In this document: positions 9,917-33,809 of the stretch, piece by piece | Layout: every line of letters begins with the position of its first letter | Position numbering within the stretch: position 1 is the stretch's first letter | Assembly (NCBI GenBank): GCA_965223905.1 | Contig: CBDCXV010000002.1 | Span: forward strand, 160,001 to 224,000 | Direction of reading: 5' to 3' | Length of the DNA: 64,000 nucleotides | Origin: Candidatus Latescibacterota bacterium | GTDB taxonomy: Bacteria; Latescibacterota; UBA2968; UBA8231 | Notes under the pieces: generated by a model | Seen by the model: only the letters and a program-made list of their open reading frames with translations | The model's database searches: none | What the model was told of the DNA's origin: nothing | Translations under genes and position numbers: made by a program

Positions 9917-10141
9917 TCAACCAAACCAGCCGTAGCTGACAGCGGTGATAAAGCCACAGTGCAATGCTGCCGAAATCGCCAGTGCCCCGCCGAGCGGCCC
10001 AGTAAACAGGGAAGAAGCTAATGCGGCAGCGGTTGCTAAACCGCAAACAAAGAACTTCAAACCTGTCAACTCATCGTGATAGGCATCGACTTTGCCCGAT
10101 GCATCGTAGTCCCTATATGAAGGTTTCTTCAAAGGTTTCAT
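9917..10141 (-). CDS. Putative bacteriocin/RiPP precursor peptide (74 aa)
   Basis: Charged leader MKPLKKPSYRDYDASGKVDAY, then a hydrophobic Ala/Gly-rich core with two Cys around a TGPLGG turn, ending YGWFG. SD-like AAAGGG upstream. Heads the export cluster. Confidence 0.75.
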   Translation of the reverse strand: MKPLKKPSYRDYDASGKVDAYHDELTGLKFFVCGLATAAALASSLFTGPLGGALAISAALHCGFITAVSYGWFG

Positions 10142-10297
10142 AGGTCTAGCCCTTTCAAGGTTATGAATTTGGTAAAGGAGTGGCCTCCCTCAACAAGGGC
10201 CTGAAATTCGGGTTCGTTCCGCGAATTTTCATCTTGTCCTCGATCACCCTGCGCCCCCAATCTGACGCCCCTCTCAACTAGTTTCATCTTAATTCAT

Positions 10298-11842: not shown

Positions 11843-12249
11843 TCCCCGGGGTTTCTTCCCATTGGGTGTACGCTGGATTTATTCTTGATCAGACGCAAAA
11901 TCTGGGCCAGCAACCTCGATGGCCCAACGGACGCCTCTAGCCAGGGTGACGCTGTGCCCCTTCTCACACAAATCCCTGTAACGACCCTCGGTCCACTCCC
12001 TCTGGCAAAATGGTCCGCATTCGCTTCGCCACTGGCCCGACGCGTTACTATTCCTACGGCCGTGCCTGATCCATACCAAGTTTGCAGGAAAAAAATTACC
12101 GCCTTGGTGCATGGGCCTGCCCCCCGGGGATGCTCCCTGGGTGGTCCAGCACACGGTTCTGTGTCCTGGAGCACACACTCCGGTGCCATCGGCGGCAAGG
12201 GGAGCCTACGGATCCCATTCCACTCCCTCTCGAACTGCGGCGGGGCCGC

Positions 12250-12740
12250 GGGTATTTTCATCGTCGACGACGTCTTCGGCCCCGATCTGCTGGAACGCCT
12301 GGAGACCGCCTCCTGGAACGTCTGGAAGAAGGTGCGGTCCGGAGAGGTGGACGAACTTCCGCTGGCAGCCGGCCCTGATCGACGACCCCTGCCTCTGGCT
12401 GATTCCCTGGAGCCAGAGCCGCTACCGCACCGACGAGGAGCAGGACGCCCTCGTCTCCGACAGGAACAGGGACCTCCCCGACATGGAGAACGTTGTCCTC
12501 AAGCGGGGGCAGACCCTGTTCTGGGACGGTAACCCCATCCACCGCGGCAAGCTGCCCCCGGGGGTGAACCAGCGGCTCGTGCTGACAGGCGGGCTGTGCA
12601 GGTACGACCCGGACGAGCCCGAGCTGGAGCCGGACAAGCGCTTCCAGTGGCGGGTCGCTGAGAACATCGGACCGGCCCTGCCGGATCGGGTGCGCCTTCG
12701 GCGGCGGCCAGGGTTCGCACCCTGGGGCCACGGTGAATAG
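12250..12740 (+). pseudogene. Phytanoyl-CoA dioxygenase (PhyH) family remnant with internal deletion/frameshift
   Basis: 'GIFIVDDVFGPDLLERLE' in one frame, 'DDPCLWLIPWS...VLKRGQTLFWDGNPIHRG...RLVL' in another; the HxD segment is missing. Confidence 0.65.
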
Positions 12741-13118
12741 GTCAGACTGTCCCGCGCACTCTGTGCGGCAACGGTGTCCAGGCCCGGCCTTCCCGGCTTC
12801 CGGGAAGCCGAAGCAAGTCCCTCCCCAGGGACCTAAAGGACACCACAATTTTTGAAAAACATCCTCGGGACCGACCGATCCCATGGACGGGCGCACCCCG
12901 GCTTGGCGGGCAGCGCATCCCGAAGGCCAGGGCTATGTACTGACTGTTCCGATCGGTGTTGTGAATGGGTATGGACGGAGCCTTTCCGCCCCGAACCGGC
13001 TCTGCCCAACACGTAGAACCAAAATGGCCGGGTTAGACAGCAGTCTGGCTGTGAAAGTCTTCGGTTTTGTTGTAAGTTGAACACGTTTCCATCAGGGCCA
13101 ACTCACGAGGGAATCACC

Positions 13119-16100
13119 ATGGATAAACATCGAAGGATCATTTCTCAGCTTGGGCAGCTTACGCAAAAAATCGCCCATCCTACGCGGCTGGTGATCGGCG
13201 GTCTCGTGGCACTGGTATCCGGCGCCGGTGCGGAACCGCTGCTCGAAGGGCGGGTGCGGCTGTTCGCCGACCTGGGCAGCTCGCTGGGCGCCGCCACCGA
13301 TGAGAGCGGCTATTTCGCGCTGCCCCTGAACGCGCTGCGCCAGGCCGCCCCCCGGCCGGCGCACATGCAGCTGGGGCAGAACTACCCCAACCCGTTCAAT
13401 CCCTCGACGATCATCCCGTATCAGCTGCCCGCCCCGACTCGGGTGCGGCTGGAGGTGTTCAACATTCTGGGGCAGCGGGTTGCCACCCTGGTCGACGGGA
13501 AACAGGCGGCCGGTTTTCACACCGCGACATGGAACGCCACAGATGCTTCAGGGCGGGGTGTGGCAACGGGGGTGTACCTGTACCGGCTGCTGGCCGACAG
13601 GGAGCGCTTGACGCGGTCGATGGTTCTGCTGGACGGACCGGTGAGCCCGGCGGGAATAGCTCCCTCCGGTGGCGGGATCTCAGCCGGTCCGCAGGGCACC
13701 GACGGTGCAGCGGATCCATCAGGTAGGACTGCGGGAGCGATAGCATCAGGGTCGTGGGTCCCCCCCGGCGGCCAAGGGCAGGTCTACGGGTTGACGGTCA
13801 CTGGCCCGGGACTCATCCCCTATGTCGACCCGGCCTTCCGGGTGGGGGACGGTCCGGTCGAAATCCGGGTGGAAACGCTGGCCAGCTTGCCTCGCGGAAA
13901 GATGGCCGCAGACGGCCTGCTGGGAGACGTCGACGGCAACGGCCAAGTCGACCTCTCCGACGCCCTGCTGGTCGCCTCGTACAGCGAGGACCCCTCCCTT
14001 TCCATTCCCAACGGGGATATCACCCTGGGGGACGTCAACCGGGACGGTCAGGTCGATCTGGCCGACGCCCGCCTCATCGTGGCGTACCATGCGGACCCGT
14101 CCGACCTGTCGCTACCGGAAGGGATCGGCGCCCCGGTGGGGGCAGATGACGAAGGACCGCGGCTCTACTGGACGGACGCGGGCAGCGACAAGATCCAGCG
14201 GTCCCGCCTCGATGGCTCCGGGGTCGAGGACGTCGTCGACAGCGGCCTGGTCTATCCGCGCGGCCTGGCGGTGGACCTGGCGGCCTCCAAGCTGTACTGG
14301 ACCGACTACGGCACCGACAAGATCCAGCGCTCCAACCTCGACGGAACCGAGGTGGAAGACCTGGTGACCGAGGGCCTGAAGGAGCCGTTCGGTATCGCCC
14401 TCGATCTGGGCGGCGGCAAGATCTACTGGAGCGACTGGGGCACCGACAAGATCCAGCGATCCAACCTCGACGGCTCCGAAATCGAAGACCTCGTCGCCAC
14501 CGGTCTGAACGAGCCCTACGGCCTCGCCCTCGACCTGGGGGAGGGCAAGATCTACTGGACCGACTGGGGCAGCGACCGGATTCAGCGCGCCAATCTCGAC
14601 GGCTCACAAGTCGAGGACCTGGTCACCGGGCTCAACCAGCCCCGGGGGATCGCCCTCGATCTGGAAGACGGCCGCATGTACTGGCCCGACTGGGGCACGG
14701 ACAAGATCCAGCGCGCGAATCTCGACGGCTCCGAGGTGGAAGACTTGGTTACCGAGGGCCTGCGGACCTCCCAGGCGATCGCCCTCGATCTGGGCAGCGG
14801 CAAGATGTACTGGACCGACTACGGCACCGACAAGATCCAGCGGGCCAACCTCGACGGCAGCCAGGTCGAGGATCTGATCACCTCCGGTCTGAAGGAGCCG
14901 TACGGCTTGACCCTGGGCGCCGGCCTGCCGGCGCAGATCCTGAAAGTAAAGGGCGCCTCGGCGACCCTGAACCTGGCCGGCCGCTTCCGCGACCCGGAGG
15001 GGGGCGCCCTGACCCTCGCCGCCGCCTCCAGCGACGAGGCGGTCGCCGCCGCGAGTCTGGCCGACTCGGTGCTGACCATCGCGCCGGTGACCCCCGGCCG
15101 GGTGACGGTCGCGGTGACCGCCCGCGACGAGGGGGGCCGGGCTGCCACCCTGCCGGTGGCCGTGACCGTGTACCCGGCCAACCGCCCCCCGGTGGCCAAA
15201 GCCCTGGCCGACCGCAAGATCCGCATCGGCAGCCCGGACCGGGTCGAGCTGACCAGCGCCTTCACCGACCCGGACGAAACAGACGTGCTGACCTACACGG
15301 CCGCGTCGAGCAACGAGGCGGTGGCCACCGCAGCCATCGAGGGGACCGGCCTGCGCATCACCCCCAAGAGCATCGGGCAGACCGGGATCTCAGTGACCGC
15401 CCGCGACCCGAAGGAACTGGAGGCGTCACTGAGCTTCAGGGTCACCGTCGAGCCCAAGCCGCCCCCCAGGCCGCCCCGGACCCCGCCCGGCTCGGGCAGT
15501 GACGATGGTGATGGTAATGGTGATGACGGTGGTGGTCCGGTAACCCCCCCGCCCCCGACGCCTCCACCTCCACCGCCGACGCCTCCGCCTACCCCACCTC
15601 CGCCGGGTCAGAACAACGCCCCCACCTTCGACGAGAGGCCGAGCGCCACCCGCAGCGTCGCCGAAAACACCGAGGCGGGTGAAGACATCGGCAACCCGGT
15701 GACCGCGACGGATAGCGATGACGACAGGCTGACCTACAGCCTGGAGGGGACGGATGCGGGGAGTTTCACCCTCGCCTCCACCAGCGGCCAGTTGCGCACC
15801 CGCTCGGGCGCCACCTACGACTACGAGACAAAGCCCCGCTATTCTGTGTCGGTGAAAGCCGAGGACGGACATGGCGGCATTGCCGCCATTGACGTGACCA
15901 TCCACGTGGCCGACGTGAACGAACCGCCCGGGAGGCCGTCTGCCCCGTGGGTTGAGCCGGCCTCCTCCACCAGCCTGACCGTGAGCTGGACCGAGCCGGC
16001 CAACACCGGCCCCGATGTCCACGACTACGACGTGCAGTACCGCAAGAGCGGCAGCTTCCTCCCCTGGCCGCACGACGGCCCCGGTACCACTACCACGATC

Positions 16101-18344
16101 CCGGACCTGGAGGTCAACACCCGTTACGAGGTGCAGGTGCGGGCGCACAACGACGAAGGGGAGAGCGAATGGTCCGCCTCGGGCTTCGGGGGGAGCTGTT
16201 CAGAAGGCGGCGATGCCCCGACGCCGGTGGAAGTGGAAGTGACGGCGGTGCCCATCGTGGTCGAGTCCAAGACCGACAAGTACTTCGTGCTCTACGTGCG
16301 GCACGACGTGGATGGCGCGACGGTAGAGGTGCCGGTTCTGGTCAAGCGCGGCGAAGCCGGCACGACCACGCTGGCCGAGAACGTGGTGGCCCTGCCCGCA
16401 GAGCGCTACCGGGTAGAGGAGTACCTCATCGCCGACCCGGCCGACGTCGACGGCGACTGCACCGACGACCTCACCGAACTGGCAGACCCGGTGGGCATGA
16501 ACCCGGTGAACCCCGCCGCGGCCATCGAATTCAGTGACGGGGCCGTGACCGTTCCCGATCGGGAAACATTCGAGACGCTCTCCTTTAACGATTTCTTCCT
16601 CAAGTTCGTTCTGCTCGGCATGCACACCGACAGCCCGCGTCTCTACTTCATGAACACCAAAACCACTTTGAATCATAAAGAGTTCCTGGAGGTCATCGGC
16701 ATCGAGCTGGGACAGGAGGGGATGATCGAAGGCAGTCTCATGCGTCGCTGGGATCTCGTTGCCCCCGATGGCAGTCCGGGAGTCTACTGCTATTGGTGGC
16801 GACATCGCCAGCATCCGTACTCCTTCAGCGTCGTGGCGCGCGCCCATACGCTGCTTGCCGCCAGCATGCCGCTGCTCGAAGACGACCTGGCGTTCTACAT
16901 ATCGAACGACGCTCTTCTGCATTCTCAACCCGACTTGCCGTTGTACAGGGAGTCCCGAATCCCACTCGTGTTCGCCGAGGAGTTCTTCGGCGAAACCAAT
17001 TTTCTGGCGTTGAACCCGGGGGAGGGGTACGGCCTGCTGCGGGTCATGGACCCGGACGAACGTCCCCACCCGCGCGACATCGTGATCTACGAGGCGCTGC
17101 CCAACGAGCTGCCCCGCGTGGCCGGCATCATCTCCACCGTGCCCCAGACGGCGCTCTCGCATGTCAACCTGCGCGCCGTGCAGGATGGCATTCCCAACGC
17201 CTTCATCCGCAACGCCCTCGACAAGCCCTACATCGACGATCTCCTCGGCAGCTACGTCCGTTACAGAGTGACCGAGGACGGCTGGGACCTGCGCGCCGCC
17301 ACCCGCGCGGAGGTCGATGCCCACTACGAGTCTTCGCGGCCCGCCCATGACCAGGTCCCGCAACGCGACCTCGGCGTCACGACGATCGCCGCCCTCGGTG
17401 ACATCGGCTTCGATGACTGGGACGCGTTCGGCGTCAAGGCGGCCAACGTGGCGGTGCTGGGGACGCTGGGGTTTCCGGAGGGGACGGTGCCCGACGGCTT
17501 CGCGATCCCGTTCTACTTCTACGACGAGTTCATGAAGCACAACGGGTTCTACACCCGCATTGAAACCATGCTGGCCGACGAAGCTTTCCAGACGGACTTC
17601 GAAGCCCAGGCGGACTCACTCAAGAAGCCGCGCAAGGACATCGAAGACGCGGAGACGCCGGATTGGATCGTCTCGGCAATCGAGGCAATGAATGAGTCTT
17701 TCTCCGAGGGGATCAACCGCCGCTACCGGTCCAGCACCAACAACGAGGACCTGCCCGGGTTCAACGGCGCGGGGCTGTACGACTCCAAGAGCCAGAAGCC
17801 GAGCGAGGACGAGAAGGATCTCGCCAAGTCCCTCAAGGAGGTGTACGCCGGTCTGTGGAACTTCCGCGCCTTCGTCGAACGCGACTTCCATCGCATCGAT
17901 CACCTGGCGGCGGCGATGGGCATCCTGGTGCATCCCAGCTACAGGGACGAGCTGGCCAACGGCGTGGCCGTCAGCTTCGACCCCATCTACGGCAGAGCCC
18001 GACGCTACTACGTCAACACGCAGGTCGGCGAGGATCTGGTCACCAATCCCGAGGCGCACTCGGTGCCGGAGGAAGTCCTGTTGAACCCGCCTTCTGTTTC
18101 TCTCCCTTACACCGTCCTTGGGACCTCCAACCAGGTGCCGCCGGGGCAACTCCTCATGAGCCGTGACCAAATGCGCCAGTTGAGAGAACATCTCGAGGTG
18201 ATCCATAAGGAGTTCGCCGATCTGTACGACCCCGCAGACGATGAACCGTTCGCCATGGAGATCGAGTTCAAGATCACCAGCGACAACATCCTGGCGATCA
18301 AGCAGGCCCGCCCCTGGGTCTTCGGCGCCCAGGTCGATGAGTGA
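13119..18344 (+). CDS. Giant modular secreted protein A: FlgD-type Ig, dockerin-like, YWTD propeller, Ig x2, Pro linker, cadherin, FN3, phospho-His domain + PPDK-type ATP-grasp
   Basis: GQNYPNPFNPST..GVYLYRL; GDVDGNGQVDLSDA x2; 6 YWTD-type repeats; QTALSHVN; GVKAAN, VPDGFAIP, RSSTNNED..FNGAGLYDS, EIEFK..KQARP. RBS gaggga precedes ATG 13119. Confidence 0.92.
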   Translation: MDKHRRIISQLGQLTQKIAHPTRLVIGGLVALVSGAGAEPLLEGRVRLFADLGSSLGAATDESGYFALPLNALRQAAPRPAHMQLGQNYPNPFNPSTIIPYQLPAPTRVRLEVFNILGQRVATLVDGKQAAGFHTATWNATDASGRGVATGVYLYRLLADRERLTRSMVLLDGPVSPAGIAPSGGGISAGPQGTDGAADPSGRTAGAIASGSWVPPGGQGQVYGLTVTGPGLIPYVDPAFRVGDGPVEIRVETLASLPRGKMAADGLLGDVDGNGQVDLSDALLVASYSEDPSLSIPNGDITLGDVNRDGQVDLADARLIVAYHADPSDLSLPEGIGAPVGADDEGPRLYWTDAGSDKIQRSRLDGSGVEDVVDSGLVYPRGLAVDLAASKLYWTDYGTDKIQRSNLDGTEVEDLVTEGLKEPFGIALDLGGGKIYWSDWGTDKIQRSNLDGSEIEDLVATGLNEPYGLALDLGEGKIYWTDWGSDRIQRANLDGSQVEDLVTGLNQPRGIALDLEDGRMYWPDWGTDKIQRANLDGSEVEDLVTEGLRTSQAIALDLGSGKMYWTDYGTDKIQRANLDGSQVEDLITSGLKEPYGLTLGAGLPAQILKVKGASATLNLAGRFRDPEGGALTLAAASSDEAVAAASLADSVLTIAPVTPGRVTVAVTARDEGGRAATLPVAVTVYPANRPPVAKALADRKIRIGSPDRVELTSAFTDPDETDVLTYTAASSNEAVATAAIEGTGLRITPKSIGQTGISVTARDPKELEASLSFRVTVEPKPPPRPPRTPPGSGSDDGDGNGDDGGGPVTPPPPTPPPPPPTPPPTPPPPGQNNAPTFDERPSATRSVAENTEAGEDIGNPVTATDSDDDRLTYSLEGTDAGSFTLASTSGQLRTRSGATYDYETKPRYSVSVKAEDGHGGIAAIDVTIHVADVNEPPGRPSAPWVEPASSTSLTVSWTEPANTGPDVHDYDVQYRKSGSFLPWPHDGPGTTTTIPDLEVNTRYEVQVRAHNDEGESEWSASGFGGSCSEGGDAPTPVEVEVTAVPIVVESKTDKYFVLYVRHDVDGATVEVPVLVKRGEAGTTTLAENVVALPAERYRVEEYLIADPADVDGDCTDDLTELADPVGMNPVNPAAAIEFSDGAVTVPDRETFETLSFNDFFLKFVLLGMHTDSPRLYFMNTKTTLNHKEFLEVIGIELGQEGMIEGSLMRRWDLVAPDGSPGVYCYWWRHRQHPYSFSVVARAHTLLAASMPLLEDDLAFYISNDALLHSQPDLPLYRESRIPLVFAEEFFGETNFLALNPGEGYGLLRVMDPDERPHPRDIVIYEALPNELPRVAGIISTVPQTALSHVNLRAVQDGIPNAFIRNALDKPYIDDLLGSYVRYRVTEDGWDLRAATRAEVDAHYESSRPAHDQVPQRDLGVTTIAALGDIGFDDWDAFGVKAANVAVLGTLGFPEGTVPDGFAIPFYFYDEFMKHNGFYTRIETMLADEAFQTDFEAQADSLKKPRKDIEDAETPDWIVSAIEAMNESFSEGINRRYRSSTNNEDLPGFNGAGLYDSKSQKPSEDEKDLAKSLKEVYAGLWNFRAFVERDFHRIDHLAAAMGILVHPSYRDELANGVAVSFDPIYGRARRYYVNTQVGEDLVTNPEAHSVPEEVLLNPPSVSLPYTVLGTSNQVPPGQLLMSRDQMRQLREHLEVIHKEFADLYDPADDEPFAMEIEFKITSDNILAIKQARPWVFGAQVDE

Positions 18345-18790
18345 TTCCGGCGGTGAGAGAGAGCGGCGCTGCGAAGGGCACGGCGGGCGGGAGCCGGAAG
18401 CAGGAGTGCCCGGGCCGCGTCGTTCACCGATCCCACGGCTTTCGCGTTGACCCCCGCCCACGATAAGTCCCCCGTCCTTCCCGGTGAAGGCTGACGAACG
18501 GGGTGCCGTCCGAACGCATCCCGGCGCCATCCCTGACAAGCCTGCGACCATCGTCCTTTAAGTAAAGAGCACCACCGAGAGCGAGTGAGCCGCCTGACCC
18601 TCAGCCCACTCGTGGCCATCGTCCTGGCTGTCGGTGCCCCGGAAGGTGCTGCGCTCACAGCGATTTGAGCTCTGCGAGGAACTTGGCGAGTCTGCCCGTC
18701 AACCGGCCGACGTTCGAGCAGGACGGACAACTCGTCCGGTGGCCATAAGGGGGGTTTCAGTGGAGCTGTTGCTGTGTTCGGCCATGCCCC

Positions 18791-19139
18791 TCAGAACTCT
18801 TCCCCTCCCACCGTCATCAACGCTTCGGCCACCTGCCCGAAGGGCCGTCCCCCGGCGACCAGGTCGACGGCGAACGGCTGCCGCCGGCAGGGCCGGTCCG
18901 GTTCGATCGACAGCTCGCAGCTGACCTCGCAGCGGGGACCTGCCTGCAGGCTCGCCGACTCTCCCCGCCATCCTTTAGGGCCGACGAGGTCGACCTCCAG
19001 CTCTGCCCTCTGCGGCAGGGGATTGCGCACGGTCACCCTCACCCGAGCCGGTCCGGGCTCGGCAAGGTGCACGCGGTAGGGCCAGATCCAGCCTCCCCAG
19101 CTGTCGAGATCGAAGTGGATCTCCTCCTCGCCGAGGGGC
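18791..19139 (-). pseudogene. Duplicated 3' fragment of the MBL-fold hydrolase gene at 31939-33780
   Basis: Colinear 349-bp near-copy of 31939-32287 (PLGEEEIHFDLDSWGGWIWPYRVHL...EALMTVGGEEF). Confidence 0.92.
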
Positions 19140-19169
19140 GCTGCCTGCCCGCTGATCACGTCGCATTGC

Positions 19170-19470
19170 CCGGACAGCAGGCGCTGAAGCAGCGCCCAGG
19201 AGGCCAAGCCCTCGGCCGCCGTGCTCCAGGCCCTCGACACCGGTCAGCGCGAACATCTCCTTGAGCAGAAGAACGTCCCCAGACCGGTTGCACCGGCCGG
19301 TTGGGACGTCCGTTGTCCTCGCAATACAAAGGCGCGAACTGTTCTTCGTCGATCAACGGCAAGGCGCGCCTGCGAAAGGTCTCGGCCCAGCTCGCCAGCA
19401 GGCGCCGCCGCTTGGCCGGGGCCCCCAGGGTGCGCGTTTCCAACAGGTTCCGTTGCGATTCCTTAACATA
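19170..19470 (-). mobile_element. Transposase N-terminal remnant (IS5/IS1182-like, DUF772-type)
   Basis: 'SWAETFRRRALPLIDEEQFAPLYCEDNGRPNRPV' then, frameshifted, 'LLLKEMFALT..E'. Confidence 0.65.
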
Positions 19471-19684
19471 AATTTAATTTGTCAATTCCAAGGCTCCGAC
19501 AGTCCGCTTTTGGACCCTTTGCAGCACCTGCCGGCAGGGAAATCCGCGGCCCGTCCAACTCCCCGGCAGCGGGTCCTCTAGTAGCGATTAATTTTGCTTT
19601 AGGCATAAAATAATTTCCCTTTCTTTTTTTAAAAAATCAGGGCGACGCATGAACTTCAGACACTTAACTTTATTTGCAGTGAAA

Positions 19685-19960
19685 CAAGCAGTGTCCCGGT
19701 CCATGATATGGAAGGCGTCCGGTTCCGACACCAAATGGTCGAGGAGAATGACATCGTGCGGTTTTCCCCCTGTGATGCGGATACAGCGGGGAATCGCGGT
19801 TTTGCGCTGACGAAAGCGGGCGAATGCCGACACGGTACAGTTTGGGGTGTAGCGCTCGCAGGCCGGTTTCGATGTCTCGCAGGCTCTCGCGGCCGGTCAG
19901 TTGAGAAAAGACCATGCAAAGAAACTGATCCGGACAGAAACCCAGCGGAAAACGGAACCT
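19685..19960 (-). mobile_element. IS4-family (DUF4372-type) transposase remnant, internally deleted
   Basis: 'DQFLCMVFSQLTGRESLRDIETGLRA..KLYRVGIR' followed by 'IP...ITGGK.HDV..LD......FHIMDR'; ends in an IR-like accgggacactgct. Confidence 0.75.
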
Positions 19961-19965
19961 GCCGC

Positions 19966-22900: not shown

Positions 22901-25900
22901 TCACCCTGCGTCTGCTGTCCGTAGGCCAGACCGCCATAACCGTGACCGCCGGCGACCCGGGCGGCCTGCAGGCATCCCGGACCTTCACCGTCACCGTGCA
23001 GGCCTCCAACGAGCCCCCGCTCGCCATCCCCTGGCTCTACTGGACCGACGCCCGCACCGACCGCATCCAGCGCGCCGAGCTCGACGGCAGCGGCATCCGC
23101 ACCCTGGTAAGCGGCCTCGGGCAGCCCCGCGACATCGCCCTGGACCGGGACGGCGGCCGCATGTACTGGACCGACAGCGGCAGCGACAAGATCCAGCGCG
23201 CCCACCTCGACGGCTCAAAGGTCGAAGACCTGGTGACCGAAGGGTTGAAGGAGCCGTTCGGCATCGCCCTCGATAAGGCCGGAGGCAAGATCTACTGGAG
23301 CGACTGGGGCACCGACAAGATCCAGCGGTCCAACCTCGACGGCTCCGAAATCGAAGACCTCGTCGCCACCGGTCTGAACGAGCCCTACGGCCTCGCCCTC
23401 GACCTGGGGGAAGGCAAGATCTACTGGACCGACTGGGGCAGCGACCGGATTCAGCGTGCCAATCTCGACGGCTCCCAAATCGAGGACCTGGTCATCGGCC
23501 TCAACCAGCCCCGGGGCCTCGCCCTCGACCTGGAAGGCGGCCGCATGTACTGGCCCGACTGGGGCACGGACAAGATCCAGCGCGCGAATCTCGACGGCTC
23601 CGAGGTGGAAGACTTGGTTACCGAGGGCCTGCGGACCTCCCAGGCGATCGCCCTCGATCTGGACGAGGGCAGGATGTACTGGACCGACTACGGCACCGAC
23701 AAGATCCAGCGCGCCAACCTCGATGGGAGCCAGGTCGAGGACCTGGTCACCTCCGGCCTGAAGGAGCCCTACGGCCTGGCCCTGGGGGCCGGGCTGCCGG
23801 CGCAGGTCTTCAAGGTGGAGGGGGACTCGGCGACTTTGAACCTGGCCGGCCGCTTCCGCGACCCGGAGGGGGGCGTCCTGACCCTGACCGTGTCTTCCAG
23901 CGACGAGGGGGTCGCCGCGGCGACCCTGGCCGACTCGGTGGTCACCATCGCCCCGGTGACCCCCGGCCGGGTGACGGTCTCGGTGACGGCCCGGGACGAG
24001 GGAGGCCGGGCTGCCACCCTGCCGGTGCCGGTGACCGTGTACCCAGCCAACCGCCCCCCCGTGGCCCAGACCCTGGGCGACCGCAAGATCCGCATCGACC
24101 GGCCTGCCCGGGTCGACCTGTCGACCGCCTTCACCGACCCGGACGAAGGAGACGTGCTGACCTACACCGCCATGTCGAGCAACGAGGCGGTGGCCACCGC
24201 GGCCGTCGAGGGGTCCGGGGTGAACATCGCCCCCAAGAGCCTCGGGCAGACGACCATTGCGGTGACCGCCCGCGACCCCGAAGGCCTGGAGGCGAGCCTG
24301 AGCTTCGGCGTAACCGTCGAGCCCAAACCGCCCCCCCGGCCGCCCCGGCCCCCGTCCGGCTCGGGCAGTGATGATAATGGAAATGGAAATAGTAATGACG
24401 GTGGTGGTCCGGCCCCCCCGCCCCAGCCGCCGCCGCCGCCGCCGGGTCAGAACAACGCCCCCACCTTCGACGAGGCCCCGGCGCCAACCCGCACCGTGGC
24501 CGAGAACACCCCGGCGAACCGGAACATTCAGCACCCGGTGCGCGCCACCGACCCGGACGGACACCGCCTCACCTACCGGCTCGCAGGCCCCGACGAGACC
24601 CGCTTCACCGTCGTCTCCAGCAGCGGCCAGCTGCGCACCCGGTCCGGTGTCGCCTACGATTTCGAGGTCAAGGACCGCTACGAGGTGAGGCTGGAATCCG
24701 ACGATACCTACGGCGGCACCGACGCCATCGACGTGACCGTGCACGTGGCCGACGTCGACGAACCCCCGCAGACCCCGGCCCGGCCCCGGGTCGAGCCGGG
24801 CGACTCGAAGAGCCTGACCGTGACCTGGACCGAGCCGGCCAACACCGGGCCCGAGGTCGACGGCTACGACGTCCAATATCGGACGGGCAGCGGCAGCTTC
24901 CTCCCCTGGACGCACGACGGCGACGGCACCACCGCCACGATCACGGGCCTCGACGTCAACACCCGCTACGAGGTGCAGGTGCGGGCCACCAACGACGAAG
25001 GCACGGGTGCCTGGTCGTCCTCGGGTCGCGGCGCCACCAGCACCAACCAGCGGCCGATTTTCGACGAGGGGGGCAGCGCCACGCGCAGCCTGGCCGAGAA
25101 CACGCCCGGCGGACAGGACGTCGGCAACCCCATAAGAGCGGCCGATCCCGAGGGCGGCGCGCTGACCTACCGTCTTACAGGTGGTGACACGGATCAATTC
25201 ACCATCGACTCAAGCAACGGCCAGCTGCGCACACGGACCGGCGTCGATTACGACTACGAGGCGCAGAATCGCTATTCGGTGACGGTCGAGGCACAGGACG
25301 AGCAGGGGGGCCGTGCCACCATCGCGGTGACGATTGACATAAACGACGACGACAACGAACGGCCGGAAAGACCCGACCGGCCCTCGGTGACGGCCTCGAC
25401 GCTGACGAGTCTGACCCTGCGGTGGACAGAGCCAGCCAACCCTGGGCCGCCCATCACCGATTACAACGTGCAATACCGTGAGGGCAGCAGCGGGGCCTTC
25501 ACTGCGGCGGCACACGATGGCACGGGCACGACGACGACGATTGCGAACCTGGAGTCGGACACCTCGTATGAGATTCAGGTGCAGGCCACCAGTGACGAGG
25601 GCACGAGCCAGTGGTCGCCATCGGGTAACGGGCGGACCGTCGCCAACCAGGCGCCGACGTTCAACGAAGGATCGCGCACTACGCGTCGTTTGGCCGAGAA
25701 CACGACGGGCACCCAGGACATCGGCAACCCGGTAACCGCCACCGACGGCGACGGTGGGACACTGCTCTACCACCTCGAAGGCACGGACCGGGCCTCCTTC
25801 ACTCTCGATGTCAACCAGCTTCAGACGATAGCGGGCGTCACCTACGACTACGAAGAGAAGAGCAGCTACGAGGTAACCGTACGCGTAGAAGACGGTCAGG

Positions 25901-28900
25901 GCGGCAGCAACACCATCGAGGTGACCATCAATCTGATAGACCAACAGGAACCGCCGGAGACCCCGTCAGCACCCGGCGTCTCAGCCGCCTCATCGACGAG
26001 CCTGACCGTAACCTGGATCGAGCCGACCAACACCGGTCCCGACGTCGACGACTACGACCTGCAGTACCGCGAAGGAGACAGCGGCGGCTTTACCTCCTGG
26101 ACGCACAACGGCGCGGACCTGACCGCGACCATCACGGGGCTGACCCCGGGCGCGAACTATGAGGCGCAGGTGCGAGCGAGCAACGACGAAGGCACGAGCG
26201 ACTGGTCGCCGTCGGGCACGGGAAACACCAGCGCCAATGAGCCCCCGGTCTTCACCGACGGGTCGAGCGCCACCCGCGCCCTCGACGAGAACACCACCGG
26301 CGTCGTCGACGTCGGCGATCCGGTCGGTGCCACCGACCCGGAGAACACGACCCTGGCCTACAGCCTCCAGGGCGCGGATGCCGACTCCTTCACCGTCCAC
26401 TCGAGCAGCGGTCAGCTGCGCACCCGTTCGGGGAAAACCTGGGACTACGAGACGACGTCCAACTATTCGGTGTCGGTGAAAGCCACCGACGGCCACGGCG
26501 GCGAGCGCACCATCCCGGTGTTCGTCGAGCTGAACGACCTCAACGAGCCCCCTTCGTTCACCAGCGACGCGGCTTTCCAAGCCGCCGAGAACCAGACCTT
26601 TGCCGGTCGGGTGACCGCTCAGGACCTCGACAGCGGAGACAACATCGCGACCTACACCGTCACCGGCGGCGCCGACCAGAACCTGTTCGAGGTCAACAGC
26701 GCAGGCACGCTGACCTTCAAGGACGCTCCCGACTTCGAGAACCCCTCGGACGCGGGAAGGAACAACCAGTACAACGTGGCCGTCACCGCCACCGGCGGCA
26801 CCGGAGGGCGCGCCCTGACATCGGAGCAGGCCATCACCGTCACCGTCACCGACGAGAACGAACCGCCCGTTTTCACCAGCGACGATGCCTTCAAGGTCGA
26901 TGAAAACGAGCAGATCGTCGGCCGCGTGATCGCCACCGACGTCGACAGGGACGACGGCATCACCGGCTACGAGATCACCGGCGGGGCCGACGAGGACGAG
27001 TTCGAGATCGCCGGCACCAACCAGTTGCGCTTCAAGGACGACCCCGACTTCGAGCGGCCGGCGGACTCTGGAGGCGACAACGAATACCTCGTGGAGGTCA
27101 CGGCCACCGGCGGCACGGACACCCGGGTGATGACGGGAACGCAGACTATCACCGTCGCCATCGAAGACGAGGTCGAGCCGCCCGGCAAGCCCGACCCGCC
27201 TGCGGTCAGCGACGAGACCGAGAGCAGCCTGACCGTGACCTGGACCGAGCCGGCCAACACCGGTCCCGTCATCACCAACTACCACGTGCAGTACCGCGAA
27301 GGCACAAGCGGCCCATTCACCGATTGGCCGGACACCGGTCCGACCCTGACCCGCACGATCACCGGCCTGCGCTCGGGTCAGACCTACCAAGTCCAGGTGC
27401 AGGCCAAAAACGACGAGGGGGAAGGAGCCTGGTCCAACGCGGGCAGCGGCAGGACCCTCACCGCGCCGACTGTTTCCAGCGTCGCCTTCACCTCGACACC
27501 ACCTTCGGGGCAGAACAACACCTACAAGAAGGACGACGTCATCGGCGTGACCGTGACCTTCAGCGAGGCGGTGACCGTCACCGGCACCCCCCAGGTCGAC
27601 CTGACCCTCGGCTCCACCGTGCGCCAGGCCGGCTACGAGAGCGGCTCGACCACGACGCAGCTGCTGTTCCAGTACGAGGTGCAGGCCGACGACGAGGACG
27701 ACAACGGCGCGGCCATCAACGAAAACGGGCTCAAGCTCAACAGCGGCCGCATCTTCCTGCTCAAGAACAGCGTCACCGTCAACGCCGACCTGGCCCACTC
27801 GGCCGTCGCCAACCAGTCCCGCCACAAGGTCGACGGCGTCGCCCCAACCCCCACCAAAGCGGAAGTGGATGGAACCAAGCTGACCCTGACGTACGGCGAA
27901 ACGCTCGTCAGCAATCCAAAGCCGGCCAACAGCGATTTCGAAGTGACCGTGGACAGCGAGACGCGAAGCGTTACCGCGGTGGCCGTCAGCAACACCAAGG
28001 TGACGCTCACCCTGGCCTCGGCCGTAAACACGGGGGAGACGGTGGCGCTTGCCTACACGCCGGGGACCAACCCGATCCGCGACCGGGCCCGGAACCCCGC
28101 CGGCGCCCTCAGCAACCTGGCGGTGGACAACCTCAGAAACGTCTGCAACCGCACCGCGCAGGTGCGCGACGAGATCATGGATGAAGCAGGGGTCAGCGCC
28201 TGCGGCGACGTAACCGCGGACCATCTTGCCGCGATCACCCGCCTCTCCCTGATTGACGAAAGCATCTCCACGCTGAAAGCCGGCGACTTCGCCGGGCTGA
28301 CGTCCCTGGAAGAACTCTACCTGTCAGACAACAGTATCAGCAGCCTGCCGGCGGGTATCTTCTCCGGCCTGTCGGCGCTGGAAGACCTCAGCCTCAGGCA
28401 GAACAACCTCTCCAACCTCGGAGCGAACACGTTCTCCGGACTGACCGCGCTGGTATCTCTCGATCTCTCCTTCAGCCATCTTGGCGACTTCGACCCCGGC
28501 CTGTTCTCCGGGCTGGCGTCCCTGACCCATCTCAATCTGCTGAGTGCCCGCATCAACAACCTGCCGGCGAACGGCTTCTCCGCGCTGACGGCGCTGGACA
28601 CCCTCATCCTTCAATACAACCTCCTGGGCGACCTCGACGCCAACGAGTTCTCCGGGCTGTCGACGCTCGAATACCTCGACCTGAGCAACACCCGAATCAC
28701 CAGCCTGCCGGCGGACGTCTTCTCGGGCCTGTCGTCGCTCAAACACCTCGACATGGAGTATGCCCGACTCTCCAGCCTTCCGGCGACCGTATTCTCCGGG
28801 TTGTCGTCACTCGAACACCTCAACGTGAAACGCAACGATCTCCCCAGTCTCGACCCCGGCCAGTTCTCCGGGCTGACGGCGCTGATCCATCTCGACATTT

Positions 28901-31900
28901 CCAGCATCGATCTCACCTCCGTGCACGCCGACCTCTTCTCAGGGCTGACTGAGCTCGAGTTCCTCGACCTGAGCTACAACAACAACCACCTCACCACACT
29001 GTCGGCAACCGTCTTTTCCGAACAGACGAAACTCAGAACGCTGAGCCTGAGAACCAACGACATATCGACATTGGACAGCCTTTTTGTCGGACTGACGGAG
29101 CTGAGATCGCTGGACCTGCGTCAAATGGACCTATCGACACTGGGAGACAGCGTTTTTTCCGGCCTGACCGAGCTGACCAGGCTCCAGCTTCAGTGGAACC
29201 CGGTCGACCCGCTGCCGATTACGGTTTCACTGGAATCGGCAGAGACGGACCAGTTCCGGGCCAAAGCGCACACCGGCGCGCCATTTGACGTGGTCCTGCC
29301 GTTGCGGCTCTCCAACGGCGAGATCGACGGCGGCGAATCGAGCATCACCATCCCCCAGGGCAGTGTCGAGAGCGAGCCTCTCTCGGTCTCCCGTACCGCC
29401 GGGACCAGGGCGGCGGTCACTGTCGATCTCGGGACGCTGCCGGCCCTCCCGTCGGGCGACAACGGCTACGAGTTGGTGAGGTCCGCCGACCTGCCGCTGG
29501 TAGTCATCGCCGCCGAGAAAGGCGTGGAGATCTACCCCACGGAACTGACCCTGCCGGAGGACGACAGCGACACCTACACGGTGGTGCTGACCATGGAGCC
29601 CACCGCTGACGTGACGGTGACCGTGACCGTGCCGTCGGGCGCCGATGTCACGGTGAACCCATCGCCGCTGACTTTCACGACCGACAACTGGGATACGCCG
29701 CAGACCGTGACGGTGAGTACCAGCGCCGACACCGACACCGATGACGACGAGGTCACCCTGACCCACACGGTGAGCGGCGGCGGCTACCAGGGAGTCACCG
29801 CCGATGACGTGGAGGTGACTGTCACGGAGACCGCGGTCAGCACCAACAGCCCGCCGTCCATCTTCCACAATTCCTGGACCGTGGATGAGAACTTCAGCGG
29901 GCACATTTCCATAGTGGGAACGGATCCGGATGACAGGGACTACATCACCGGGTACGAGATCACCGGGGGCCGCGACCGGGCCCTGTTCGAGATCGCCACC
30001 CGGGGCGGACGGGGCGAGCTGACCTTCGTGGATGTACCCGACTTCGAACGTCCGGCAGGCACCAGCAACCGGAATGAGATCGTCGTCACCGTCACCAGCG
30101 GCATGGGCGCCCGAAAGCGGACCGGGCAGCGGCAGATTGCCATCAACGTGAACGACGTGGACGAGCCGCCGGGCCGGCCGCCGGCGCCCGGATTGAGTCT
30201 CCCCGGCGGCTCTCCCACCATCGCGGTGAGCATGGGAGGCCGGATCCCGCCGGTGAATACCGGACCGGACATCAGTGGCTGGGGAATAGGATACCGCGAG
30301 AAGGACAGCGGCGACTTCATCACCTCCACGCACACCTCCTCAACCTTGGACGCGCGGATCGACAATCTGACCAAAGGCGTTACCTACGAGGTGCAGGTAC
30401 AGGCGAAGAACGACGAAGGGGACAGCGAGTGGTCACCCTCGGCGGAGAAAGAGCTCCCCAACAAGCCGCCGGTCGTCGTCGGCTCCTTCGACGATCTCAC
30501 GCTGGCGGTGGGAGGCGCCGTTGAGATCGTGTCCGCAGACGGGGTCTTCAGCAGCCAGGACGGCGACCTGCTGACGTATTCGGCGTCGTCCGGCAATACG
30601 GCTGCCGCTACCGTTCAGCTGATCGGTACCAAGGTCCTCGTGGATCCCGGGTCGGCCGGCAGTGCGACCATCACCGTGACCGCGAGCGATCCATACGGTG
30701 CGTCCGACTCGGAGACGTTCGACGTTACGGTGCAGACGCCGACCCTTTCGGCGCCCACACTGACCATCACCGGCAACCTCTTCACGCTGTCATTCACGGA
30801 TGACTTCGCGGCCGAGGAAACCCGGGCCTACCATGTACGCATCCGCCAGAAGACGAACCATGGACCCTGGGCGACAGGGTGCCATACCGAGACCAATGAC
30901 GAGGATTCCCAGCAGTCCATTTCGGTATCGCTGGAGGACGCGGTCTCCGATTTCTTCGAACCGGGCACCACGTATGAGGCGGACTACGGATACCTGGGGG
31001 CGGACTGCGACGGCAGCCTGACGGGTTCGCGGTCGGCGACCGGCGAGGTGACCACGTCCGGGACGGCATCCTTCGATATCGACCTTGTCTTCGTCGGCAG
31101 CATCTCGTCGACAAACCGGTCCCATATCGAAGACGCCGTCGAGCGCTGGGAGGAGATCATCACCGGTGATCTTCCCAACCATCAGTTAACCAGCAGGAAT
31201 CGCGAGTACCTGAACCGGCGTTATCCAGGTACTACCGCCCCCGAGGTCGTGGACGATATCGTGATCTACGTGAGAACCGGTTACGTGTTGGGGCTCGCAG
31301 CGGCTACGTCCTTGTCGCACCGGACTCCCTCCTCCCTGCCGTTCGCATCCGAAATAGTACTCGGCACCAGCAACGTGATCAATTACCTCGTCGCTCTGCA
31401 CGAGATAGGCCACGCGCTGGGATTCGGAACCTATCCGTGGACAGCTCACAACCTGTTGAAGGACCCCTCCCGAGGACCATTCTCAACCATCATCACTCCC
31501 TCTCCCGACACCTACTTCTCGGGCGCGAAGGCGGTTGCCGCCTTCGACGCGGCGGGCGGGACGAGCTACACCGGCACCAAGGTGCCTGTGGAGAACGGCT
31601 CCAGCACGCGGTACCGACCCAGCCTGGACAGCCACTGGCGGCAATCCGTCATACAAAGCGAACTGATGACGCCAGGGTTTTCCGATCCCGGTCCGCTGAG
31701 CGCGATCACCATCCAGTCGATGGCCGACCTGGGCTACACCGTCGACGTCACCCAGGCCGACGCCTACACCCTGCCGTCTTCCATTACCGCGAAACGGGTG
31801 GCCTGGGCGGGCGGGGACGACAAGGAGGAGGCGGTCCTGCTCAACTGCGTCCTCGATCACCACGAGACCGGGCCCGAGGAGCCCGAGCCGATCACCCTGA

Positions 31901-31929
31901 ATCTGCGCAGGGTCGGCCGGAGGGAATGA
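19966..31929 (+). CDS. Giant modular secreted protein B (~3990 aa): FlgD-type Ig, dockerin-like, 3 YWTD propellers, Ig, cadherin/FN3 arrays, SwmB-like, LRR, C-terminal M8 (leishmanolysin-like) Zn protease
   Basis: Signal peptide MRWVIGCLLALAPAAGA; 18 YWTD-type repeats; repeated cadherin (ENT..DYE) and FN3 (W..P..Y.VQY..Y.VQV.A.N.EG...WS); about 14 24-aa LRRs; HEIGHALG..SHW..ELMT. Confidence 0.93.
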   Translation: MRWVIGCLLALAPAAGAEPLLEGRVLLSSGAPAAGARVRLFADLERSLRATADESGYFAFPLNALRKAAPLPARLHLGQNYPNPFNPSTIIPYQLPAATRVRLEVFNILGQRVATLVDGERPAGFHTAAWNATDASGRGVGSGVYLYRLLGGGERLTRSMVLLDGAVGLGGGGGSARAAAPPRGKGPVYGLTVSGPGLVPYVDPAFRMGGGPVEIQVQPLSSLPRGKVAAGGLLGDVNRDGRVDLADALLVASYSEDPTLSLANGDLTLGDVNRDGQVDLADARLIEAYHADPSDASLPEGIGAPVGAEARLYWTDADGDRIQRSFLDGSGVEDVVDSGLVNPRGLAVDQAAGKLYWTDYGSDRIQRSNLDGSEVEDLVTTGLRIPLGLALDTVAGKLYWTDNGSDKIQRSNLDGSEVEDLVTGLQTPLSLALDAAAGKLYWTDSGTDKIQRANLDGSEIEDLVATGLELPRGLAVDAAGGKLYWTDNGSDQIQRANLDGSQVEELVREGLHTPRGLALDPEAGKLYWTDSGTGKIQRANLDGTEIEDLVTEGLLSPRGLVLVRTVAPGNQAPVLAPIADRTAAAGDTLTLVAAGSDPDGDTLTYTASSGNEAVVSVEIADSLVTVYALSAGGATITATVRDPEGLEAVQTFSVLVGAGGLGAVNRLYWTDAEADRIQRANLDGSAVEDVIDSGLVNPRGLAVDEAAGKLYWTDYGSDRIQRSNLDGTEVEDLVTAGLQIPLALALDAAAGKLYWTDNGTNRIQRSNLDGSEVEDLVTGLQTPLGLALDQAGGKLYWTDSGADKIQRANLDGTEIEDLVTAGLQIPRGLALDTAGGKLYWADSGTDRIQRANLDGTEIEDLVTTGLGTPRGLALDVSAGKLYWADSSTDRIQRSNLDGSEIEDLVTEGLLSPRGLALARIPSADNQAPTLEPLADRMAATGDSLTLELAGSDPDGDALTYTASSSQEEIATAEAADSLVTLRLLSVGQTAITVTAGDPGGLQASRTFTVTVQASNEPPLAIPWLYWTDARTDRIQRAELDGSGIRTLVSGLGQPRDIALDRDGGRMYWTDSGSDKIQRAHLDGSKVEDLVTEGLKEPFGIALDKAGGKIYWSDWGTDKIQRSNLDGSEIEDLVATGLNEPYGLALDLGEGKIYWTDWGSDRIQRANLDGSQIEDLVIGLNQPRGLALDLEGGRMYWPDWGTDKIQRANLDGSEVEDLVTEGLRTSQAIALDLDEGRMYWTDYGTDKIQRANLDGSQVEDLVTSGLKEPYGLALGAGLPAQVFKVEGDSATLNLAGRFRDPEGGVLTLTVSSSDEGVAAATLADSVVTIAPVTPGRVTVSVTARDEGGRAATLPVPVTVYPANRPPVAQTLGDRKIRIDRPARVDLSTAFTDPDEGDVLTYTAMSSNEAVATAAVEGSGVNIAPKSLGQTTIAVTARDPEGLEASLSFGVTVEPKPPPRPPRPPSGSGSDDNGNGNSNDGGGPAPPPQPPPPPPGQNNAPTFDEAPAPTRTVAENTPANRNIQHPVRATDPDGHRLTYRLAGPDETRFTVVSSSGQLRTRSGVAYDFEVKDRYEVRLESDDTYGGTDAIDVTVHVADVDEPPQTPARPRVEPGDSKSLTVTWTEPANTGPEVDGYDVQYRTGSGSFLPWTHDGDGTTATITGLDVNTRYEVQVRATNDEGTGAWSSSGRGATSTNQRPIFDEGGSATRSLAENTPGGQDVGNPIRAADPEGGALTYRLTGGDTDQFTIDSSNGQLRTRTGVDYDYEAQNRYSVTVEAQDEQGGRATIAVTIDINDDDNERPERPDRPSVTASTLTSLTLRWTEPANPGPPITDYNVQYREGSSGAFTAAAHDGTGTTTTIANLESDTSYEIQVQATSDEGTSQWSPSGNGRTVANQAPTFNEGSRTTRRLAENTTGTQDIGNPVTATDGDGGTLLYHLEGTDRASFTLDVNQLQTIAGVTYDYEEKSSYEVTVRVEDGQGGSNTIEVTINLIDQQEPPETPSAPGVSAASSTSLTVTWIEPTNTGPDVDDYDLQYREGDSGGFTSWTHNGADLTATITGLTPGANYEAQVRASNDEGTSDWSPSGTGNTSANEPPVFTDGSSATRALDENTTGVVDVGDPVGATDPENTTLAYSLQGADADSFTVHSSSGQLRTRSGKTWDYETTSNYSVSVKATDGHGGERTIPVFVELNDLNEPPSFTSDAAFQAAENQTFAGRVTAQDLDSGDNIATYTVTGGADQNLFEVNSAGTLTFKDAPDFENPSDAGRNNQYNVAVTATGGTGGRALTSEQAITVTVTDENEPPVFTSDDAFKVDENEQIVGRVIATDVDRDDGITGYEITGGADEDEFEIAGTNQLRFKDDPDFERPADSGGDNEYLVEVTATGGTDTRVMTGTQTITVAIEDEVEPPGKPDPPAVSDETESSLTVTWTEPANTGPVITNYHVQYREGTSGPFTDWPDTGPTLTRTITGLRSGQTYQVQVQAKNDEGEGAWSNAGSGRTLTAPTVSSVAFTSTPPSGQNNTYKKDDVIGVTVTFSEAVTVTGTPQVDLTLGSTVRQAGYESGSTTTQLLFQYEVQADDEDDNGAAINENGLKLNSGRIFLLKNSVTVNADLAHSAVANQSRHKVDGVAPTPTKAEVDGTKLTLTYGETLVSNPKPANSDFEVTVDSETRSVTAVAVSNTKVTLTLASAVNTGETVALAYTPGTNPIRDRARNPAGALSNLAVDNLRNVCNRTAQVRDEIMDEAGVSACGDVTADHLAAITRLSLIDESISTLKAGDFAGLTSLEELYLSDNSISSLPAGIFSGLSALEDLSLRQNNLSNLGANTFSGLTALVSLDLSFSHLGDFDPGLFSGLASLTHLNLLSARINNLPANGFSALTALDTLILQYNLLGDLDANEFSGLSTLEYLDLSNTRITSLPADVFSGLSSLKHLDMEYARLSSLPATVFSGLSSLEHLNVKRNDLPSLDPGQFSGLTALIHLDISSIDLTSVHADLFSGLTELEFLDLSYNNNHLTTLSATVFSEQTKLRTLSLRTNDISTLDSLFVGLTELRSLDLRQMDLSTLGDSVFSGLTELTRLQLQWNPVDPLPITVSLESAETDQFRAKAHTGAPFDVVLPLRLSNGEIDGGESSITIPQGSVESEPLSVSRTAGTRAAVTVDLGTLPALPSGDNGYELVRSADLPLVVIAAEKGVEIYPTELTLPEDDSDTYTVVLTMEPTADVTVTVTVPSGADVTVNPSPLTFTTDNWDTPQTVTVSTSADTDTDDDEVTLTHTVSGGGYQGVTADDVEVTVTETAVSTNSPPSIFHNSWTVDENFSGHISIVGTDPDDRDYITGYEITGGRDRALFEIATRGGRGELTFVDVPDFERPAGTSNRNEIVVTVTSGMGARKRTGQRQIAINVNDVDEPPGRPPAPGLSLPGGSPTIAVSMGGRIPPVNTGPDISGWGIGYREKDSGDFITSTHTSSTLDARIDNLTKGVTYEVQVQAKNDEGDSEWSPSAEKELPNKPPVVVGSFDDLTLAVGGAVEIVSADGVFSSQDGDLLTYSASSGNTAAATVQLIGTKVLVDPGSAGSATITVTASDPYGASDSETFDVTVQTPTLSAPTLTITGNLFTLSFTDDFAAEETRAYHVRIRQKTNHGPWATGCHTETNDEDSQQSISVSLEDAVSDFFEPGTTYEADYGYLGADCDGSLTGSRSATGEVTTSGTASFDIDLVFVGSISSTNRSHIEDAVERWEEIITGDLPNHQLTSRNREYLNRRYPGTTAPEVVDDIVIYVRTGYVLGLAAATSLSHRTPSSLPFASEIVLGTSNVINYLVALHEIGHALGFGTYPWTAHNLLKDPSRGPFSTIITPSPDTYFSGAKAVAAFDAAGGTSYTGTKVPVENGSSTRYRPSLDSHWRQSVIQSELMTPGFSDPGPLSAITIQSMADLGYTVDVTQADAYTLPSSITAKRVAWAGGDDKEEAVLLNCVLDHHETGPEEPEPITLNLRRVGRRE

Positions 31930-31938
31930 GCCTCCGCC

Positions 31939-33780: not shown

Positions 33781-33809
33781 GGTTTCCGCCTTCCTGTTGG
33801 TTTGGGGTG

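Follow-up and report, generated by a model that had tools for sequence, protein, structure and literature searches.

The stretch analysed here comprises 64,000 bp of a Candidatus Latescibacterota genome (assembly GCA_965223905.1, contig CBDCXV010000002.1, positions 160,001 to 224,000; hereafter the window) and encodes two giant neighbouring proteins, A and B, which have a common N-terminal part and end in different, putatively catalytic parts. Gene A (13119-18344) codes for 1741 amino acids (aa) from an ATG at 13119, most likely its start, in an open reading frame (ORF) that opens at a TTG (13077-18344, 1755 aa). Gene B (19966-31929) codes for ~3987 aa from an ATG at 19966, in an ORF that opens at 19708 (4073 aa). 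The ATG at 19966 is probably the start of B, because the similarity between A and B begins at 13184/19968 and because the B-like gene of a related genome aligns from its own start codon. Both genes lie on the forward strand and have a GC content at third codon positions (GC3) of 0.84-0.86, which is typical of convincing genes in this window of ~65-70% GC.

The domain anatomy was determined with Pfam, and feature boundaries were taken from the Pfam envelopes. Protein A comprises, in this order, an N-terminal leader, one YWTD propeller, a pair of Ig domains, a proline-rich linker, a cadherin domain, a fibronectin type III (FN3) domain and a dikinase-like module; Pfam matched FlgD_ig (aa 120-171), Dockerin_1 (282-335), six Ldl_recept_b, Big_9/Cadherin (846-942), fn3 (958-1034) and PPDK_N (1451-1746). 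Close to the N-terminus is a domain that resembles both the type A sorting domain of the type IX secretion system (T9SS) and the Ig-like domain of FlgD (13383-13613, residues 89-165 counted from the ATG at 13119; TIGR04183 31.4 bits with a cutoff of 23, FlgD_ig 33.5 bits). It is followed by a dockerin (13920-14081) which, with 33.9 bits in A and 34.2 bits in B against a cutoff of 22.9, qualifies in both proteins as type I, by a six-bladed YWTD (LDL-receptor class B) propeller (14160-14921) and by the cadherin (aa 860-933) and the single FN3 domain (together 15654-16178). The 706-aa dikinase-like module (16224-18341) has an invariant histidine, H313 of the module, at 17160-17162 and ends in a PPDK_N ATP-grasp domain (17427-18314). 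Protein B comprises the leader, three YWTD propellers with Ig domains, a proline linker, an array of cadherin and FN3 domains, a SWM repeat, leucine-rich repeats (LRRs), further Ig/FN3 domains and a protease related to family M8; Pfam matched FlgD_ig, Dockerin_1, 18 Ldl_recept_b, five cadherin, five fn3, SWM_repeat, 11 LRR_8 and Peptidase_M8. The LRR block lies at approximately 28237-29277 (11 LRR_8 stretches; LRR_14 at aa 2945-3164) and the core of the M8 (leishmanolysin)-like metalloprotease, which contains the HExxH motif, at 31372-31764.

An initial annotation, made from the letters of the DNA, had described a chassis common to A and B, from the signal sequence over FlgD, dockerin, YWTD, paired Ig domains, proline linker and cadherin to FN3. 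This was borne out by Pfam and BLASTP: residues 37-698 of A were 65% identical to 88-742 of B, and residues 340-1047 of A were 74% identical to 1083-1791 of B. Therefore, A corresponds to the chassis of B minus two propeller-plus-Ig units. The similarity is far above chance (E = 0) and ends abruptly. The final high-scoring segment pair (HSP) of the DNA alignment stops at 16159/25001 and the protein homology at residue 1047 of A and 1791 of B (nt ~16217/25080), in agreement with the divergence point noted before, where the first FN3 domain ends (~16190 in A, ~25030 in B). That A then runs into a dikinase and B into LRRs and an M8 protease was likewise confirmed by Pfam, as PPDK_N-type and M8-like, respectively. 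The claim of long near-identical DNA (~14360-15450 versus ~23230-24320) stood for a part of this region only, since the long HSP (14161-15575 versus 23033-24444) has an overall identity of 87.1% and identity, calculated in windows of 90 nt, reaches 90-99% only at 14353-14890. A tract of 90-100% identity covers ~14386-14860 of A, inside the propeller. The longest exact match, 125 bp, starts at 14669/23538. Downstream of the high tract, identity is 83-91% up to ~15340, 57-72% at 15520-15970 and again 83-86% before the junction. In the tract 14386-14860, A is 90-100% identical to B but only ~78-93% identical to its positional homologue in a close relative. Such a mosaic is the signature of gene conversion, here between the two paralogues.

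The initial annotation had further proposed that FN3 and cadherin repeats serve as points at which C-terminal enzymes are exchanged. Two proteins from other assemblies bear on this. P0395 (1019 aa, encoded on an independent contig of 30.7 kb and belonging to a cluster of six sequences) aligns colinearly with 914 aa of A at 82% identity; it begins in the Ig/proline-linker region and continues with cadherin, a single FN3 domain and the whole module. P0125 (1726 aa), whose module is 88% identical, carries five FN3/cadherin units like the array of B, followed by the junction peptide of A. Since both share the FN3-to-module junction of A, the junction recurs in independent assemblies, and since the FN3 variants before this one module differ among A, P0395 and P0125, FN3 units next to it have been shuffled. 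The proposal is supported by an FN3 domain directly before the module, by the same junction peptide in independent proteins and by the conversion mosaic; a dedicated motif like the pre-toxin motifs of toxin systems was not seen at the junctions, which are ordinary repeat boundaries.

The same proteins are relevant to the question of whether A is real. The 5' and 3' ends of different genes could have been fused by a mis-join in the propeller tract or by collapsed FN3 repeats: the exact match of 125 bp together with ~475 bp at 90-100% identity could mislead some assemblers, synteny with the relative breaks off within gene A, and a long form with five FN3 domains does exist (P0125). However, P0395 has the same succession of Ig end, proline linker, cadherin, one FN3 domain and module on a contig of its own, identity to B is no more than 57-91% in A from the Ig domains to FN3, hence this part is no collapsed copy of B, and the reading frame of A is intact over 1755 codons with a GC3 of 0.84. 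The recurring junction argues against a chimera at the FN3-to-module point. We consider an assembly artefact very unlikely, and likewise a mis-join inside the propeller tract.

A scan of genomes for related loci returned chromosomes of Candidatus Latescibacterota, many Poribacteria and one metagenome-assembled genome (MAG) of the Gemmatimonadetes. One Latescibacterota locus, L001 on OZ242214.1, is 96.8% identical to window positions 3362-12694 over 9.3 kb. The region upstream of A (4000-12000) has a GC content of 45-58% compared to 65-70%, carries genes for an ABC transporter, a peroxiredoxin-like protein, a Yip1 protein and a TPR protein, and is still 96.8% conserved in L001. The gene at the position of A is a remnant in L001 (9863-12567), with a frameshift near 11100 and a stop at 12054. 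It is homologous only to aa 1-666 of A; past 12510 L001 does not match the window, and synteny ends inside the remnant. A B-like gene of >3723 aa is located ~55 kb away on the same chromosome (L010, 9992-21160), with an unrelated upstream flank. Therefore, the locus is highly variable between closely related genomes. The number of synonymous substitutions per site (dS) between B (19966-31926) and the B-like gene amounted to 0.42, compared to 0.04-0.10 for four flank genes of the same genome pair (window 4146-4922 was left out owing to an indel offset). The ratio of nonsynonymous to synonymous substitutions (dN/dS) of B was 0.37 overall and highest, 0.65, in the LRR stretch.

The order at the locus is gene A, a spacer of 446 bp (18345-18788) that is specific to A and matched nothing else in the window or the fetched loci, a fragment of a metallo-beta-lactamase (MBL)-fold gene, a unique spacer of 826 bp (19140-19965), gene B and, 10 bp past B and convergent with it, the full MBL-fold gene (31939-33972, reverse strand). 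The fragment (18789-19139, reverse strand) repeats the 350 bp at the 3' end of the full gene, from which it derives; it starts exactly at the stop codon of that gene, is 95.5% identical to 31937-32287 and forms with it a direct repeat that brackets the segment holding B. This repeat appears to be the mark of the rearrangement that made A and B neighbours. A plain tandem duplication of the B locus was considered and rejected: the 826 bp upstream of B match nothing in front of A, and the 5' part of A is nearer to the positional homologue of the relative than to B.

These data also bear on the view that A and B are static old paralogues, each architecture going back to one ancient fusion and the likeness of their DNA reflecting constraint instead of ongoing exchange. 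Such a history would fit the protein identity of only 65-74%, the conservation of B-type (LRR plus M8) and module-bearing architectures each in many genomes and the purifying selection on B seen against its relative (dN/dS 0.37). It is hard to reconcile with the abrupt changes in A/B identity from 57% to 100%, with a propeller of A that is nearer to the neighbour B than to the positional homologue, with a duplicated non-coding flank of 95.5% identity, with the different FN3 variants before one module, and with a locus that differs between genomes which are 97% identical in the flank. We regard static paralogy as unlikely, and favour exchange of parts within a modular family.

This family was delineated with the leader (aa 37-345 of A) as query. 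Among 8000 scored proteins (542-2000 aa), 4574 matched at E<=1e-3; the following details are from 120 listed homologues. They covered 84-100% of the leader with 51-88% identity, and in all of them (120/120) the leader was N-terminal and followed by 126-1645 residues. A hand count of Pfam domains gave PF07995 (GSDH, a pyrroloquinoline quinone (PQQ)-type sugar dehydrogenase) in 37/120 and PF00058 (YWTD) in 41/120, besides PF13855 (LRR) in 15, WD40-type propellers in six, CARDB in many and PF00082 and PF10462 in single cases each. Several pairs of the listed leader proteins come from contigs of equal length, which suggests that there are multiple paralogues per genome. At other Latescibacterota loci, the leader was combined with LRR, CARDB, FN3, PPC, YWTD or WD40 domains, in some cases in tandem. 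The initial annotation would have been refuted had A and B been the sole architectures; evidently many exist, and the part of the initial annotation which proposed one front end with many C-terminal parts is upheld.

The leader consists of a Sec-type signal, a CarboxypepD_reg-like piece, usually the T9SS-type sorting/FlgD Ig domain, a Gly-rich linker and often a dockerin, a composition which suggests that it sorts or anchors the protein. As far as is known, sorting domains of the T9SS must be C-terminal. In A and B, the Ig-like domain lies ~90-170 residues from the N-terminus, and more than 1500 residues follow it. Domains with 41-52% identity to it form the ends of ORFs at loci of Poribacteria and Latescibacterota. 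In gene 1 of L003 and in L008, the leader lacks the sorting-type domain and a copy with 48-49% identity ends the protein, and in Poribacteria and at one Ignavibacteria locus the domain is likewise C-terminal. So the leader of A, B and most of the listed relatives has received a sorting-type domain that is normally terminal. Leader-bearing WD40 proteins with a terminal FlgD/T9SS-type domain, and none in the leader, were found at L003 7169-10282, L008 9962-11614 and L002 6-677; in L002 and L003 a gene that opens with a full leader follows after 30-45 bp. A description of this leader was not found in the literature searched on Latescibacteria, sponges, T9SS and dockerin.

The initial annotation had likened this arrangement to polymorphic toxins, that is, to a system for bacterial competition in which a shared N-terminus delivers exchangeable toxins, each normally accompanied by an immunity gene. 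Adjacent genes with a common N-terminal region and different C-terminal enzymes, the strain-level variability of the locus and the many tips on one leader are indeed what such a system would show. The analogy did not hold, however. Among the window ORFs, neither A nor B is followed by a small immunity-type ORF that has family support, as had been noted before: A is followed by a spacer and the MBL-fold fragment, B by the convergent MBL-fold gene, and an ORF between A and B (19261-19581) gave no family hit and has a GC3 of 0.64. The tips are dikinase-like or LRR plus M8, and elsewhere PQQ sugar dehydrogenase, WD40 or CARDB, none of which is a known toxin fold; the Pfam output for the tips of A and B contained no toxin family, and that for both proteins contained no RHS/YD, haemagglutinin or pre-toxin domain. 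Orphan tip cassettes were not found by tblastn in the window outside A and B, and the junctions are the ordinary repeat boundaries described above. We judge a toxin system for bacterial competition to be most improbable.

The tip of A is a module of ~700 aa that comprises a beta-sandwich, an acidic DxDxD loop, an alpha/beta domain, a conserved His motif and the C-terminal PPDK_N ATP-grasp. A search of cluster representatives at 50% identity with the module gave 3986 clusters at E<=1e-3, of which 1206 remained at E<=1e-30; identity in the matches listed was 45-88% over ~700 aa, with the module at the start, in the middle or at the end of proteins of 426-3769 aa. PPDK_N was present in all of 24 module proteins scanned, together with fn3 in 13/24, cadherin-type domains in 8/24, C-terminal T9SS/FlgD domains in 3/24 and LRR in 2/24. 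In an alignment of 28 module proteins, 5 carried Por_Secre_tail, 4 CWB2 and 2 SLH domains. These partner domains for secretion or wall anchoring suggest that the setting of the module is extracellular, so it may act outside the cell in several phyla. A name was found for 0/120 listed relatives of near module length, and the module was not described in the literature searched on PPDK_N and on secreted or bacterial glucan water dikinase.

More than 100 columns of the module are invariant, including H313, K405, R500/R502-S504 and E681/Q694/R696, and the ATP-grasp residues align with those of phosphoenolpyruvate (PEP) synthase. PF01326 (PPDK_N) was matched with 76.9-79.8 bits and a profile search of the PDB matched PEP synthase with an E value of 2e-15. 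AlphaFold, run with the alignment, modelled the module with a pLDDT of 88.8; folding of the single sequence gave 34 and was useless. The top matches in Foldseek (E 9e-14) were PEP synthase (2ols), rifampin phosphotransferase (5hv1), HpeI (9goj) and pyruvate phosphate dikinase (PPDK), and they span ~340 columns, that is, the ATP-grasp half. A PEP/pyruvate-binding TIM barrel was not matched by Pfam, and the protein ends with the ATP-grasp. Atlas lists a plant glucan water dikinase cluster for the module (score 0.81), a lead only. In plant glucan water dikinase, too, the His domain precedes the ATP-grasp. The tip of A is accordingly named "dikinase-like", and a His-relay phosphotransferase would be the best-supported mechanism.

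The tip of B matched Peptidase_M8 with 28.1 bits (cutoff 21), a partial match to profile positions 212-334 of 529; HExxH and, downstream, SHW...ELMT can be read in the translation, and a sequence search of the PDB with the tip gave no match. The last 374 aa of B had 396 longer homologues (656-2000 aa), most of them with LRR, cadherin, FN3 and PF01457 domains, and thus the LRR plus M8 arrangement is also a conserved unit. The leader was present in 2/120 listed homologues of this tip. Both tips are portable and were found on other chassis.

In sum, we consider it fairly probable that A and B are paralogues from a very large modular family of Latescibacterota surface proteins with a shared leader and stalk, whose tips are exchanged by recombination in repeats. 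The family probably consists of secreted, cell-surface-displayed, eukaryote-like multi-domain proteins. The leader would sort or anchor each member, the YWTD propellers, Ig domains, proline-rich linker and cadherin/FN3 units would form a binding stalk, and the distal end would be the working part. In A, this would be an ATP-grasp of the PEP synthase/rifampin phosphotransferase type behind an invariant-His domain, presumably a His-relay phosphotransferase outside the cell; in B, it would be LRRs with an M8-like zinc protease. The target of these putative enzymes may be the matrix or the cells of a sponge host. The common chassis would have been kept by shared descent and recent gene conversion, and the different tips would have been acquired by recombination at repeat boundaries, in A at the FN3 domain directly before the module. 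We infer secretion and display, as well as the order of these events, from the patterns described. Plant glucan water dikinase phosphorylates starch. A bolder version, in which the leader is an undescribed display route of the Latescibacterota and the module an extracellular His-relay dikinase that phosphorylates a polymer of the host or the environment, appears unlikely to us.

Several observations weigh against this interpretation. Regarding secretion, the signal peptides of A and B were judged by eye, and neither a T9SS gene nor a cohesin was found among the scanned ORFs of the 64-kb window. Regarding the chemistry of A, the His domain did not match PF00391 (PEP-utilizers), GWD1_pHisD was matched weakly (E 0.037) by 2/28 module members, and a PDB sequence search with the His-bearing stretch gave nothing below E = 1; furthermore, the module would be an extracellular ATP-dependent enzyme with no obvious ATP supply. 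Regarding the combination of parts, the leader was at the N-terminus of 0/266 retrieved module-bearing proteins; many of the closest module proteins are N-terminally truncated, and A is the only full leader-plus-module protein seen. Many close homologues look like fragments or frameshifted calls, and some of the architectural diversity may be an assembly artefact. The idea that the single FN3 domain of A arose by a deletion which joined the first to the last FN3 of a long form was tried and is weakly indicated only (63/74 versus 59/74 identical residues in the body, 17/18 in the tail); it is weakened further by P0395, which is a short form and has another FN3 body. Finally, the bacterium itself is likely sponge-associated, as judged from the isolate names and phyla of the related records and from the literature.

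What is new here is a leader with an N-proximal sorting-type domain and a dockerin, and an unnamed module of ~700 aa that is found together with surface and secretion domains. The locus is a concrete case, at the level of sequence, of the rebuilding of symbiont surface proteins, in which neighbouring genes undergo gene conversion, junctions fall on FN3 boundaries and the locus turns over between strains. It flags two widespread uncharacterised units, a leader with a sorting-type domain where none was expected and a highly conserved module present in >1000 protein clusters. Should the module work extracellularly, it would represent a phosphotransfer enzyme of a new kind, one that acts outside the cell.

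Elsewhere in the window, eukaryote-like repeat genes with no leader encode a Kelch propeller (43358-44680), a protein with a weak NHL match (41911-42939) and a vWF_A/VWA/YfbK_C protein (58594-60207). A defence-type cluster (46557-56424) comprises genes for an AAA_21/AAA_15/DUF3696 ATPase, the S subunit of a type I restriction enzyme and a nucleotidyltransferase-domain protein, and a long HSDR_N plus ResIII ORF preceded by a Peptidase_S24-like stretch. An ORF at 35673-36820 matches only the C-terminal part of the catalytic domain of class I Cys-tRNA synthetase (profile positions 199-300 of 301) and adjoins a HicB-like antitoxin gene; it may be a truncated or split cysS.

The closest known systems each share some of these properties. 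Polymorphic toxins such as contact-dependent inhibition (CDI), Rhs and MafB systems also have a conserved N-terminal part, variable C-termini and diversity by recombination, but A and B differ from them by the lack of an immunity gene, a toxin domain, orphan cassettes and a dedicated junction motif. PEP synthase, PPDK, rifampin phosphotransferase and alpha-glucan water dikinase share with the module its PPDK_N ATP-grasp of ~300 aa, upstream of which the module has an invariant-His domain; the module differs in that it has no PEP/pyruvate TIM barrel and no match of its His domain to PF00391, would be extracellular and has an additional N-terminal beta-sandwich and an acidic loop. Cellulosomal enzymes carry a type I dockerin on many catalytic or binding passengers, whereas the dockerin of A and B is N-proximal, no cohesin was seen in the window and the passengers are not glycoside hydrolases. 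Giant predicted-extracellular proteins of the Omnitrophota combine dockerin and adhesion repeats with enzymes, and PPDK_N is among their frequent domains (bioRxiv 10.1101/2023.11.21.568195, in the passages considered); these belong to another phylum, are far larger and have a different (SecA-like, HEAT) architecture, and the 700-aa module is not described there as a unit. Type A cargo of the T9SS resembles A and B in that the TIGR04183 cutoff is reached and one sorting-type module is common to hundreds of passengers, but the domain of A and B is N-proximal (residues 89-165 of 1741 in A) and not at the extreme C-terminus. Sponge symbionts of the Poribacteria, Latescibacterota and Acidobacteriota are reported to be enriched in cadherin, FN3, LRR and WD40 proteins, with lateral transfer (Robbins et al. 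2021, PMC8163846). The passages considered make no mention of the leader or of enzyme tips, and the words "dockerin" and "cohesin" have 0 occurrences in the text of that paper; the domain types are the same as in A and B, and the records nearest to the A/B locus are MAGs of Latescibacterota and Poribacteria. Taken together, passengers with a common module for sorting or anchoring, joined to the eukaryote-like repeats of sponge symbionts, would seem a better comparison for A and B than polymorphic toxins.

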